Program-made: the position numbers and the translations under genes | Shown: positions 36,101 to 39,100 of the stretch, piece after piece | Numbering within the stretch: the first letter of the stretch is position 1 | Layout of the letters: the number at the start of each line of letters is the position of its first letter | The notes under the pieces: model-generated | What the model saw: the letters and a program-made list of their open reading frames with translations, nothing else | Databases searched by the model: none | What the model was told of the DNA's origin: nothing | Virus record (IMG/VR): IMGVR_UViG_3300029911_000010 | Location: 32,001-96,000 of that record | Strand: one strand, 5' to 3' | Source: a virus | DNA length: 64,000 nucleotides

Positions 36101-36162
36101 CCGCCATTGTCGTGTGGCATCTGGGCGTCGGGGATGATCGAGGAGACGACACCTTTATCACC
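33106..36162 (-). CDS. rpoBC: RNA polymerase beta C-terminus fused to beta' N-terminal part (in-frame continuation of 36163-39585; first ATG at 36120)
   Basis: [28 protein letters not shown] (beta) then GGLFD, [29 protein letters not shown], PSQE (beta'). Confidence 0.9.
   Translation of the reverse strand, partial: [1018 protein letters not shown]
35050..36054 (-). mobile_element. Intein with LAGLIDADG endonuclease (335 aa) in beta NPLGVxSR/xN motif
   Basis: [10 protein letters not shown]...FLGWYVAEG...YLAGDG...VYCPTV...AGN/T. Confidence 0.9.
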
Positions 36163-39100
36163 TCAGCCGTACCGGCCGCTATTTTGCGACCAGTACGTTT
36201 TGTCCCTCCTTTCCACGTAAAGGGTGTGATTCGGAACAGTGACGCAATACACCATGCCGTCATAAGCGACGACGGTCTCTTCGACACTCTCGTAAGTGTT
36301 AGCCTTGCCTTTCTTCCACCACGGTCGCAAGTGTCGACGGTTGATCCGGGCTCGCCAGTGCCGTTCTTTGGCCCAGTTGTCAGTCCGTGTGACTTCCTTG
36401 ACGGACGCGCACCAGCCGAGCTTCAAGCAGATCAACTGCATGTCGTACGCTAAACGCTCGGACGACGTGCTGTATTCCCAGCAGTCACCTTTGTGCCCAT
36501 CGCCTGCCAGGTAAGCGTCGAAGAAAACACCAAGCTGCCGTGGTGGAAGCTCTTGAACGTATTCAGGCACTCGCTCGGTGTAACTGTCGCCCAGCGGTGC
36601 GAGTTGTGCAGCCAGCCAGGCATTGCCGAGTTCAAAACGCTGGTCACCTTCGTTGTAGTAGAACGGTAAACCGAGTCGGTCGATGACATCACGAATCGCA
36701 GTAAAGTGCGGCGACTCACGAAACTGTGCAATCTTGACATAATTACCGACGCACCAGCCTTCGGCGATGTAGTAGCCTAAAAACTCCAGCCAGTCATCCA
36801 TCGCAACGCGATCGAGTACGACGCGATCACTACGGTGCTTCACGTCAACGATGGGGAACGCGTAGAACGGCTGATCTTGTCCGACCCAAGCGCAGTCCTT
36901 CTTAAACTGCCATTCGCCCTTGGACGCATAAAACTCGCGGGCCGTCACCGCGCTGTATGGCTCGCCTGGACGTGACACCCACAAACGGTGGTCCATCGTC
37001 ACCAGCATGTCAAGATGTTTGGTGACGAGCTTGTACATCTCACCTTTGTGCTCGTACGCCCAAACGTGTGTCGGTCGCTGCCACTCCAATTGTTCGGACG
37101 CGTTCAGCGTGGCTACCCAGTCATCGACCGTCACATCCGCCACGGAAACAAATCCACGGTTTTTCGTCAGCACTCGTGTCTCGGTGTCGAAGCACATCTT
37201 GTCACCGACCTGCGTCGGGTGCTTGCTCTTGACCACCACCACCGGGCCGTCCTTGCCGTCGACCACGTCGGTGACGACACCCTCGTCGTGATGATCCCAG
37301 GTGATGCTGGCGTCGGCGAAAGGAGCCTGCCGCTTCTTGTGAATCTTGTTGGCCGAGTGCTCGCGTTGTTCGGCGGCAATGATTAACGGATCGCCGTGTT
37401 TTACCGTGGTGCCGACCTTGATCACACCGCGATCGTCCATGTTGTCCAGTGTCTTGCGATCATAACGGCCGGGAAACAATGAGATGTAGTTGCTCTTGCC
37501 GATCTTGTGCTGGTCGCTGATTTCCAGACCGTGTTGATACATGTGCTCGGAGGTCATCCGCTTGGCCATCGACTCGCTGATGACCGTGGCATCCTCAAAG
37601 TTTTGCCCGCCCCACGGCAGATACGCCACACGGGCGTTAAGCCCCAACGCCGAAGCACCCTTCTTGTCGGTGAAGTTGGAGTGGGCCATCAACTGACCCT
37701 GCGAAAACCGGTCACCGGGTTTTACAGTCGGCGTCTGGTGGATGAACGTCTTGCGGTTGTACGGATGATTGTTGTACAGCTCCAGCGTGGCCGTCGTGCC
37801 ATCGTCGTGCTTGACCTTTATGCCTTCGGGCGTCACGTCCAGCACCCGGCCGCCCTTGTCGGCGAACATGGCACCCATGTGCTTGCCGTACTCATCCTCG
37901 TAGCTGCGATTGCCGTTGCTGCCGGGCACGGCGTTCTGCACCAGCGGCGACTCAGCGCCAATCACCGGCAGGGCCTGAGTGCTCATACGGCTGGCCATGC
38001 TGGCACGTTGCCCCTTGAGCATGCTCTTGAGCGGAATGAAATGGTCCAGTGGGCTGAACGCATGCTCAAACTGCGGCAACGTCAACGTTACGTCGCGTTT
38101 CTTGACCCAGGTCAGCCGGCCGCCCTGCATGGCCGGAATGCGCTTGTAAGGCAAACCCATGGCTCCAGGAAACGTGACGGTGGTATCGGCAATCTCCTGC
38201 GGCGTTTTGTAGACCGTCTTGCCGGTGTTGACGTCAGTAAAGCTGCCGTACAGCTTGCCGTCTGAACCTTTGCGGGCATTGCCGGCCAGATAGGTGTCTA
38301 CACCAGCCTTAAAACTTTCCGGGGTCCGCAAAGGATCGATAAATCCGTAGTGGCTGGGCTGCACCGACCGGGCTTCGTCCGGGATGGCGTCGTAGCTGGG
38401 AATGCCGCCTTCGCCCATGCGGCTGACCTGGGTGTTCTTGTCCAGGATCTCGGCGGGGTTGATTTCTTCCAGCGACCGGCCGAGCCCCGAGTCCAGCAGC
38501 GCCGAATCCAGTTGACCCTGCAGCGGGCGAGTCGGCATGGATTGCAGATCACCTTTGAAGCCGGCCTTGTATAGCAGCTGCCGCTGCACGCCGGCCCGAT
38601 CCTTAGCCAACCGCTCGCGGAACAGATCCTCGGGGCCGAGAAACCGCTGGTAAGCCAGGTGATCGCGATCGTCGGGAGGTGATTCGCCGCGACTGACCGC
38701 CAACAGCCTGCGAGTAATCGACAGCATCGCATCTTTGTTGAGATTCTGATGCGGATGATCGAGTGTGTGCTTGGTGACCTCCGGGTCAAGCGTCATTCCT
38801 TCGAACGCTTTTCGGATGGCATCATCCAGCGAGCCTTCGACTTTGCCGCCCAGTACCTTGTCCTTGAGCTTGTGCAGCGCCTGCTCGTCCTTGCCCACGA
38901 CAGAGTTGGTCTGATGCAGTTCCGGTCCCCAGGCATCACGAATTTCCTTGTCGCTGGCCCCCATGGTCTTAAGCAACGGCATCAATGGGATGTTGGCGTT
39001 GCCCATCTTAATGAAAAAGCGGCCCTTTTCCGGGTCCAGCCAATACCGATGGCTGGGTCCACCGGCCAACACGTTGGTGTGCGTCTCGATCTCGCCGTTT

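Follow-up and report, generated by a model that had tools for sequence, protein, structure and literature searches.

Six versions of a break in a giant-phage RNA polymerase gene, all behind one conserved hairpin, suggest that ribosomes hop over it

The RNA polymerase gene, its two inteins and an in-frame TGA

The window, by which we mean the whole stretch of 64,000 nucleotides analysed here, comes from a metagenome assembly of an uncultured giant phage, with an estimated completeness of 47%. No close relative was found among GenBank phages by megablast, and the best tblastn match in the same set, to Salmonella phage Arash and Vibrio phages, has 29% identity. The minus strand encodes an RNA polymerase (RNAP) that joins beta to the catalytic N-terminal half of beta' in a single fusion, as indicated by Pfam matches to RNA_pol_Rpb2_6/_3/_2 and Rpb1_2 and by the NADFDGD motif of the beta' half at 33379-33399 (minus). 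The features of the locus, in the order in which the gene is read, are the following.

33106..39585, minus strand: the RNAP gene as a whole, a fusion of beta with the catalytic N-half of beta', broken up by both inteins and by the TGA (translation, Pfam, relatives L001-L083)
37195..39585, minus strand: N-extein, 797 aa, ending ...VGDKM (translation; 64% identity to L001)
36181..37194, minus strand: intein 1, 338 aa, with Cys1 and LAGLIDADG motifs, ending ...DKTYWSQN before Ser+1; absent from relatives that read GDKM/SGRYG
36168..36197, minus strand: RNA hairpin of 12 bp, CGUACUGGUCGC-AAAAUA-GCGGCCGGUACG (centroid fold)
36166..36168, minus strand: proposed take-off codon GGC, the Gly of SGRYG (GGY followed by a stop in 7/7 alleles)
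36163..36165, minus strand: in-frame TGA, the proposed slow-to-decode A-site codon at take-off (TGA, TAG or TAA in other alleles)
36160..36162, minus strand: proposed landing codon GGT (GGY in 5/7 alleles; absent from all intein-free relatives)
36160-36165, minus strand: the 6-nt insert TGA GGT, extra with respect to intein-free relatives and proposed to stay untranslated
36055..36159, minus strand: resumed coding, first codon GAT at 36157-36159 (pN/pS 0.28 over the first 13 and over the first 36 codons)
35050..36054, minus strand: intein 2, 335 aa, LAGLIDADG, at GVISR/TNPAQ (Pfam LAGLIDADG_3, 1.5e-5)
33106..35049, minus strand: remaining C-extein (end of beta and N-half of beta'), open as far as the TAG at 33106

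Read in the frame of the RNAP gene, the minus strand of 36151-36180 is AGC GGC CGG TAC GGC TGA GGT GAT AAA GGT, and one and the same frame is open on either side of the TGA, for 1140 aa upstream and 1018 downstream. The stop falls in the short extein between both inteins (ending GVISR), with 5 codons before it and 36 behind, and the next in-frame start is ATG 36120. Re-reading the sequence bore out the first-pass annotation, which had placed an in-frame GGC-TGA-GGT 5 codons past intein 1 and 36 ahead of intein 2. Its count of exactly two added codons, a stop and a Gly, also holds, given that the motif is gap-free and lacks TGA GGT in the intein-free close relatives and in some 70 further loci, and aligns without gaps with the bacterial beta motif GDKMAGRHGNKGVIS of solved structures. 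Moreover, TGA is an ordinary stop in this DNA, as had been claimed, since it ends 35 of the 88 long ORFs on the contig (33 end in TAA and 20 in TAG). The presence of a stop and a spare Gly codon within an essential active-site motif of the RNAP gene is thus confirmed as real.

With regard to the mobile elements, intein 1 is in frame between the borders CFDTE...YWSQN/S, is absent from relatives and has same-site homologues in other loci. It scores 24.7 bits against TIGR01445 (intein_Nterm, cut-off 24.5), with matches to LAGLIDADG_3 and Intein_splicing that stay below threshold. On these sequence features it would qualify as an intein with a LAGLIDADG homing endonuclease. Intein 2 is missing from relatives L001, L002 and L027 and found in L048 and L084. 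The intein clade has spread down to ~50% intein identity with the break retained, and mini-inteins devoid of the endonuclease domain still have it. Insert-less alleles are nested within this clade, and the well-supported branches of the intein tree (a quick IQ-TREE search, whose topology was used only for counting changes of insert state) require at least four such changes.

Variation of the insert and the hairpin beside it

DNA alleles of the site were collected by means of a search pattern that was degenerate throughout and left the insert optional, which retrieved seven distinct sequences. All seven DNA alleles of the intein clade carry an insert, in six distinct forms, listed here with the take-off codon before it and the resume codon behind it.

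W (this window): take-off GGC, insert TGAGGT, resume GAT
L027: take-off GGT, insert TGAAGGC, resume GAT
L084: take-off GGC, insert TAGGT, resume GAT
L085: take-off GGT, insert TAACTAAGC, resume GAT
L089: take-off GGC, insert TAACGAT, resume GAT
L102: take-off GGT, insert TAACTAGGC, resume GAT
L103: take-off GGT, insert TAACTAGGC, resume GAC

The six distinct inserts measure 5, 6, 7, 7, 9 and 9 nt. The first-pass annotation had advised aligning homologues for the 6-nt insert; a break at the same codon is present in the six non-window alleles, which come from independent metagenomes and carry inserts of 5, 7, 7, 9, 9 and 9 nt. In every allele the first triplet of the insert is TGA, TAG or TAA, straight after GGY. 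The triplet ahead of the resume codon is GGY in 5/7 alleles (4/6 without the window), where chance would give 2 in 64, and it is only near-cognate in the remaining two (AGC and GAT). The downstream frames across alleles are 0, +1 and +2, and the motif SGRYGDKG[VI][VI] is obtained in every one of them only when the insert is omitted. Since the downstream frames differ, neither read-through nor a single frameshift explains all alleles.

Both flanks of the insert behave as coding sequence, with frames that stay open across alleles for 1089 codons or more on the upstream side and for 271-2021 codons on the downstream side. The 13 codons after the insert, which have no possible start before them, show a pN/pS of 0.28 over the seven alleles, and between the stop and a conserved Met 14 codons on, the downstream frame of these same seven contains no ATG, GTG or TTG. 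A restart at ATG 36120, for which the first reading had pointed out the loss of the second Lys, would lose the conserved and selected DKGVV... codons. Broader degenerate DNA patterns, run against viral and genome contigs, gave no further alleles. At the protein level, JGI, ENA, NCBI and Logan together yielded 39 clusters that terminate in ...N[SC]G[RQ]YG, and these reveal the stop, not the frame beyond it. The protein-level alleles, 30-odd beyond the DNA set, include KSYWS, KTYLS, SGQYG and NCGRYG variants. In a CheckV-complete relative of 226 kb the beta gene is single-copy and there are no tRNA genes, which indicates that a phage suppressor tRNA is not involved; two near-complete relatives lack tRNA genes, and the sole tRNA of the window's contig is a tRNA-Pro(CGG).

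Directly upstream of the insert lies a hairpin of 12-13 bp in the alleles reported here, which reaches into the take-off codon by a single base, the first. Its 5' arm is formed by the intein 1 codons T-Y-W-S and its 3' arm by the C-extein codons S-G-R-Y-G. It is the centroid fold (z = -3.5), it is 100% paired in all seven alleles, with one compensatory change from G-C to A-U and two G.U pairs, and it folds with -21 to -23 kcal/mol, where 57 control junctions average -11.3. The G.U pairs and the compensatory change make the hairpin specific to the sense RNA. Codons are invariant in 7/11 columns at the hairpin compared with 4/110 over the remaining intein columns (p=1.5e-6), and intein-free relatives use many different codons for the hairpin-arm residues. 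The Tyr of the 5' arm occurs in 39/39 insert-bearing clusters but in only 1/8 of the insert-less alleles nested in the clade. Covariation comes down to one pair in two related alleles, 11 of the 12 pairs showing no variation, and its score was equalled by 42/500 shuffles. The conserved Tyr and Trp codons of the 5' arm could instead reflect a nascent-peptide or a splicing constraint. No Rfam family matches the region of the insert.

A candidate stop-hop and the alternatives to it

Six versions of a break behind one conserved hairpin suggest, from sequence comparison, that ribosomes hop over it. In the TGA GGT we probably have a short, programmed bypass in translation, a stop-hop of natural origin, driven by the hairpin and inherited with the intein. 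What the sequences show directly is the insert in its several variants, the hairpin, and selection on either flank, from which we infer the hop, how efficient it is and what the hairpin contributes to it. The gap, proposed to be untranslatable, lies within one gene and has coding selection on either side, with no start codon for the second part before the conserved Met; the take-off and landing codons can be read by one peptidyl-tRNA (GGC/GGT here, GGY in 5/7 alleles); the gap length varies among relatives, frame included, as frame-independent re-pairing would allow; and the stop comes directly after GGY in all seven DNA alleles, the point at which the 39 protein clusters end. The hop from GGC over TGA to GGT that the first-pass annotation had put forward as restoring the motif hence gains support from the alleles, their frames, the GGY landings, the hairpin and the flank selection, with a mechanism that may run as follows.

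With the ribosome at GGC (36166-36168), peptidyl-tRNA-Gly(GCC) would occupy the P site while UGA stands in the A site. If termination is slow, the anticodon could release GGC, the mRNA would slide by 6 nt and the same tRNA would pair again on GGU, so that decoding restarts at GAU AAA, nine bases yield one glycine and the universal motif is left intact. At take-off the 3' arm of the hairpin should lie in the mRNA exit channel and the 5' arm already outside the ribosome, in which case refolding of the hairpin, pulling the mRNA forward, would be the likely driver. Protein splicing would then excise both inteins to give an active beta/beta'-N subunit. The cassette of hairpin, stop and landing codon straddles the border between intein and extein and passes down the clade together with the intein, which would make it part of a composite mobile element. 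Of its pieces, the 5' arm of the hairpin is intein DNA, while the 3' arm belongs to the extein, as do the stop and landing codon. A recoding signal divided in this way may even act as an 'addiction' device, with the RNAP decodable only while the intein is kept, a tentative extension that we regard as rather doubtful.

A combination of conventional recoding events, leading to a protein with 2-3 extra loop residues, appears improbable. It would take read-through in the window, L085 and L102 (giving G-X-G-DK and G-X-L-S/G-DK), a +1 frameshift in L027 and L089 (G-E-G-DK and G-N-D-DK) and a -1 or +2 shift in L084. The window allele is in frame, so that read-through alone is enough there, three alleles have the weak termination context of a stop followed by C, and a refolding upstream hairpin is reported to favour +1 shifts (PMC6321510). 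However, three mechanisms would then be needed for one conserved cassette, the would-be inserted residues vary among alleles, loop length is constant in ~70 relatives and solved RNAPs, GGY ahead of GAY in 5/7 alleles is left unaccounted for, and GGY-stop offers tRNA-Gly no slippery site. A truly split gene, in which beta-N ends in SGRYG after splicing and assembles with a second polypeptide started downstream, is slightly less probable still. Multisubunit RNAPs with split beta and beta' exist in phiKZ-like jumbo phages, 39 clusters are called as ending at GRYG, and GAGGTGAT in the window looks like a Shine-Dalgarno site. Nevertheless, this string varies among alleles, no start precedes the conserved Met although the 13 codons before it, including the active-site Lys, have a pN/pS of 0.28, the active-site loop would be cut, and the matched Gly codons would go unexplained.

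That the break is non-functional, either an assembly or sequencing error or a repair scar of the homing endonuclease that inactivates the gene, seems very improbable. The contig is a partial metagenome assembly, and the break lies 15 nt from the intein insertion point, where the endonuclease cuts and repair occurs. Against this, the same codon is broken in independent assemblies from several sources, the remaining >2000 codons are intact in every allele, the gene is the only beta copy in a complete genome, and a clade reaching ~50% intein identity retains the break, mini-inteins included. Recurrent breaks at one codon, the hairpin, the flank selection and the single beta copy thus argue together against both error and inactivation, which the first-pass annotation had listed as alternatives along with an intron scar. 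Removal or editing of the insert at the RNA level before translation, guided by the hairpin, is the most improbable of these alternatives. The conserved hairpin does adjoin the insert, but Rfam gives no family for the region and neither the stop after Gly nor the matched Gly codons, both hallmarks of bypass, would have a role. To our knowledge, no system cuts 5-9 nt out of a bacterial or phage mRNA.

Several other readings were considered and set aside. Selenocysteine (UGA with a SECIS element) does not fit the TAA and TAG alleles with shifted frames, and an Rfam match is absent. Stop-codon reassignment (codes 4 or 25, as in recoded phages) is at odds with the use of all three stops, TGA included (35/88), and with the lack of suppressor tRNA genes; a phage suppressor or special tRNA, with the tRNA-Pro(CGG) as the only one on the contig and two near-complete relatives free of tRNAs. 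A prfB-type +1 programmed frameshift is incompatible with the window's downstream frame of 0 and with a GGC that is not slippery onto GCU. A split intein does not agree with the position of the stop, which comes after the Asn-Ser junction and after splicing blocks F and G. An ORF-bearing, in-frame intron would take SGRYG with it on splicing. Finally, the window has GAGGUGAU as a candidate Shine-Dalgarno site close to the landing codon, but the alleles do not conserve it.

Implications and comparison with known bypass systems

Programmed bypassing is among the rarest modes of reading a gene; its accepted cases are T4 gene 60 and a single lineage of yeast mitochondria. If the stop-hop is true, the RNAP site would add naturally occurring hops that range from 5 to 9 nt and lie in an essential enzyme's active-site loop. 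It would also bring built-in natural 'mutants' that differ in gap length, have an imperfect landing codon or, as revertants, lack the insert. With the simple conserved hairpin as candidate driver and with these variants, a direct test of the mechanism would need a construct of only ~60 nt. It would also be the first link of bypassing to inteins and would extend the idea of bypass cassettes that travel with homing endonucleases. As to annotation, the public data contain 39 or more protein clusters in which this RNAP has been called as a truncated gene. Were the more doubtful 'addiction' reading true as well, a selfish intein would block its own loss through a stop-hop, and the ~45-nt unit of hairpin, stop and landing codon would be a bypass module of minimal size, portable and perhaps efficient, working with ordinary bacterial ribosomes and host tRNA-Gly.

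The closest formal precedents are synthetic stop-hops between matched codons around a stop, including +5 and +6 hops (Weiss 1987, as cited in PMC5009743). Like GGC UGA GGU of the window, these E. coli constructs let one tRNA read nine bases as one amino acid. They were engineered, un-stimulated and inefficient, whereas the RNAP site is natural, conserved in a clade, placed in an essential motif and adjoined by a conserved hairpin. Such un-stimulated hops of 1987 are reportedly ~1% efficient in E. coli, which counts against the proposed hop. A 2016 recoding review stated that no natural in-frame stop-hop was known, and that shorter natural counterparts with matched codons had long been presumed (PMC5009743). 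Moreover, refolding of an upstream hairpin is reported to promote +1 shifts by 70S ribosomes (PMC6321510), and pairing of the exiting mRNA has been described as a forward driver (10.1101/2024.12.09.627546).

Gene 60 cassettes show GGU/GGC take-off and landing pairs and linkage to mobile elements (10.1101/2022.08.31.505936). T4 gene 60 and the RNAP site share a Gly take-off codon, an adjacent stop, a matched landing codon, a 5' stem-loop upstream of the take-off codon, and a homing-endonuclease element as carrier in an essential phage gene. On the other hand, the gap is 5-9 nt at the RNAP site and 20-50 nt in gene 60 cassettes (50 nt in T4), which leaves no room for a take-off (A-site) stem-loop of the gene 60 type, and the RNAP hairpin abuts the take-off codon whereas the T4 stem-loop lies 9 nt upstream. 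The carriers also differ, being an in-frame LAGLIDADG intein here and a free-standing MobA gene in the T4 gene 60 cassette, and no free-standing endonuclease ORF occurs at the RNAP site among the window ORFs. The host gene is RNAP beta instead of the large subunit of topoisomerase II. Membership in the T4 gene 60/MobA family by homology was consequently rejected on the grounds of another host gene, an intein carrier and no sequence homology, so that the parallel drawn in the first-pass annotation stands for the logic (Gly take-off, stop, upstream stem-loop, mobile element) and falls for descent.

The byps of Magnusiomyces capitatus mitochondria are 27-55 nt long and number 81 per genome (Lang 2014 and Nosek 2015, as cited in PMC5009743). 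At a byp the A site is occupied by a sense codon that is unassigned, and the bypass depends on relaxed mitochondrial decoding. In contrast, the RNAP cassette occupies a single site, has a stop codon and a specific hairpin, and would be read by a bacterial-type ribosome.

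The interrupted active-site loop of the RNA polymerase

The break lies in an RNA polymerase (RNAP) frame interrupted by two inteins, where translation and a Pfam search recognized Rpb2 domains 2, 3 and 6 in the beta part and Rpb1 domain 2 with NADFDGD in the beta′ part.

Features of the RNAP region
33106-39585, minus strand: RNAP reading frame, beta followed by the N-terminal catalytic half of beta′
36181-37194, minus strand: intein 1, LAGLIDADG, after VGDKM
35050-36054, minus strand: intein 2, LAGLIDADG, at GVISR/TNPAQ, ~41-42 codons downstream of intein 1

The stretch between the inteins comprises 42 codons ending in GVISR, with an identical frame on both sides of the TGA, and the minus-strand reading confirmed the in-frame GGC-TGA-GGT described in the first-pass annotation, 5 codons after one intein and 36 before the next. 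In intein-free relatives (64% and 52% identity) the motif is uninterrupted, its spacing is the same in ~70 further IMG/VR loci, and its alignment with GDKMAGRHGNKGVIS from bacterial RNAPs of solved structure needs no gap. Because relatives and solved enzymes are gap-free here, the window carries exactly two extra codons, TGA GGT, in a loop of fixed length, as had been claimed. Moreover, TGA ends 35 of the 88 long ORFs of the contig (a 104-kb fragment of an uncultured phage, CheckV completeness 47%), many of them tightly packed, so that it is an ordinary stop, and all factual statements of the earlier annotation hold.

The wider layout (25948-39585, minus strand; records G001 and G002) joins beta to the catalytic half of beta′, the C-terminal half being a separate 1655-aa gene with its own intein. 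The intein 2 site, whose junction lacks a stop insert, is filled in loci L048 and L084 and in protein clusters P0019, P0049, P0121 and P0123, and empty in loci L027, L085 and L089. In protein P0124 another intein starts right behind the second GDK (SGRYGDK/CYCPETS...), 8 residues past the first intein site; the active-site loop is a hot spot of intein insertion. A further intein-like insertion, ending in a stop, is found at AKGGESG/CFTGDTEV in the relative IMGVR_UViG_3300020037_003256 (L002 ~11250-12000, the same as L007), followed by ~100 codons in other frames and then ...LAAGIVVSN/SKRISLL, an arrangement resembling a split intein or 'fractured gene' (compare PMC2677866).

Alleles of the break and their decoding

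In L027, a 226-kb phage that is complete by CheckV and carries a homologous intein at this position, the sequence reads TAC GGT TGA A GGC GAT AAA, with the stop behind the same Gly codon, an insert of 7 nt and the downstream frame at +1. The peptide DKTYWSxNSGRYG, back-translated into a fully degenerate DNA pattern that left the sequence downstream unspecified, matched 4 viral and 3 metagenome loci, every one with an insert. Seven distinct alleles are found, window included.

Alleles of the break (take-off codon, insert, resume codon)
Window: GGC, TGAGGT, GAT
L027: GGT, TGAAGGC, GAT
L084 (202-kb phage): GGC, TAGGT, GAT
L085: GGT, TAACTAAGC, GAT
L089: GGC, TAACGAT, GAT
L102: GGT, TAACTAGGC, GAT
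L103: GGT, TAACTAGGC, GAC

In all seven a stop (TGA, TAG or TAA) opens the insert immediately behind GGY, and of the landing triplets just ahead of the resume codon, five are GGY and two the near-cognate AGC or GAT. Open frames are intact on both sides in all of them (at least 1089 codons upstream, 271-2021 downstream), and 39 protein clusters with this intein clade from JGI, ENA, NCBI and Logan assemblies terminate at ...N[SC]G[RQ]YG. The break is a conserved feature: comparison of homologues places it at the same codon in all alleles, with inserts of 5, 6, 7 or 9 nt. In the window, insert and resume codons also spell GAGGUGAU (36155-36164, minus strand), an 8-nt match to the Shine-Dalgarno consensus overlapping the landing codon; the string is AGGUGAU in L084 and missing from the remaining alleles.

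For a stop-hop, the classical requirements are a stop immediately behind the take-off codon and a landing triplet to which the same tRNA is cognate, and tRNA-Gly(GCC) decodes both GGC and GGU. Leaving the insert out yields SGRYG-DKG[VI][VI] in every allele. A translational hop over the insert, as the first-pass annotation had proposed, is probably the correct reading, supported comparatively by alleles, frames, matched Gly codons and a hairpin. Since the insert lengths of 5, 6, 7 and 9 nt put the downstream ORF in frames +2, 0, +1 and 0, read-through would account for no more than the in-frame alleles, and +1 or -1 shifts for no more than the rest; moreover, the residues that inserts would encode (X-G, E-G, L-G, X-L-S, X-L-G, N-D) are not conserved within a loop whose length never varies, and a mixture of both mechanisms is unlikely.

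A truly split gene is quite unlikely, given that the 13 codons from the insert to the conserved Met, the first possible start codon, are under selection (pN/pS 0.28, with synonymous change near saturation) and so must be translated in the frame resumed after the insert. An artefact or non-functional break is very improbable, as the break recurs in seven alleles with intact long frames and the gene is single-copy in the complete relative, and removal of the insert at the RNA level is the most remote of these readings. Assembly error, pseudogene, code change, selenocysteine and a phage suppressor tRNA are all poor explanations, because the break is conserved, its flanks are open and selected, the beta gene is single-copy in L027, and no tRNA genes were found in L027 or in a 90%-complete relative.

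A predicted hairpin ahead of the insert

The insert is preceded by 39 nt that hardly vary in sequence, in inteins whose proteins are only ~58% identical. Where an alignment column holds an invariant amino acid with degenerate codons, the codon itself never changes at 7 of 11 positions of the tail vs 4 of 110 elsewhere in the intein (Fisher p=1.5e-6); in intein-free relatives all Gly and Arg codons occur at the same positions. The constrained stretch folds as follows:

36168-36197, minus strand: RNA hairpin of 12-13 bp, CGUACUGGUCGC / GCGGCCGGUACG

It reaches as far as the first base of the take-off codon and is the centroid structure (z = -3.5 vs shuffles). It is paired in all alleles and, because of two G.U pairs, is present only in the sense RNA. 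One compensatory change, G-C to A-U, arises through synonymous Ser codons (TCG/AGC to TCA/AGT), a modest covariation confined to one pair and two alleles that are related. In insert alleles the corresponding 45-nt stretch has a folding energy of -21 to -23 kcal/mol, against an average of -11.3 for 57 control junctions, which take in the other intein subtype at the same site, without insert.

At the protein level, eight insert-less alleles are nested within the clade, and well-supported branches of a quick tree search of the inteins force at least 4 changes of insert state. A Tyr codon, UAC, makes up the core of the 5′ arm, and this Tyr is kept in 39/39 insert alleles vs 1/8 insert-less ones (p=1.3e-7, kinship ignored), being replaced in the other seven, in agreement with a putative role of the hairpin. 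We infer that, once GGC is in the P site, the mRNA exit path would be occupied by the 3′ arm (12 nt), loop and 5′ arm being already outside, and that zipping of the stem would pull the mRNA a few bases 5′-ward through the ribosome. The nascent peptide (…DKTYWSxNSGRYG, lying in the exit tunnel) may also contribute, an effect inseparable in these data from the RNA signal. The conserved block is immediately preceded by a Shine-Dalgarno-like string made of two Arg codons of rare type, AGG AGG (36205-36210, minus strand), at a place where other alleles have AGA GAG or AGG GAG; the pair could slow or space ribosomes ahead of the hairpin.

Link to the intein and comparison with known systems

No insert was found in the intein-free relatives examined, including ~70 IMG/VR loci, nor in a second intein subtype at the same GDKM/S site (L045, L048, L058, L073). 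The hairpin takes its 5′ arm from the intein, and in the 3′ arm the C-extein is written in particular synonymous codons. The cassette is thus confined to the intein allele. It outlives the endonuclease, as mini-inteins P0045 (164 aa) and P0048 (173 aa) have lost that domain and still end ...SGRYG-stop. Presumably the cassette moves with the intein via co-conversion during homing, and it could guard against intein loss, limit how much RNAP is made or be carried along as a tolerated passenger.

A search of the available literature found no published description of this cassette, and the comparative evidence supports an apparently new, natural short variant of programmed translational bypassing, tied to an intein. 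In gene 60, a 5′ stem-loop and 'pairing of exiting mRNA' were proposed to play the pulling role (10.1101/2024.12.09.627546), and the same role is reported for upstream hairpins whose refolding favours +1 shifting by 70S ribosomes (PMC6321510). The gene 60 cassette has homologues with GGU/GGC pairs and with UGA or UAG behind the take-off codon, and that bypass travels with MobA (10.1101/2022.08.31.505936), a parallel to the intein link of the present cassette. The +5 and +6 events of this kind of Weiss et al. 1987 came from synthetic constructs, whereas the present cassette is natural (PMC5009743). The same review (Atkins et al. 2016) knew of no natural in-frame stop-hop and held short natural counterparts of gene 60 to be long expected (PMC5009743).
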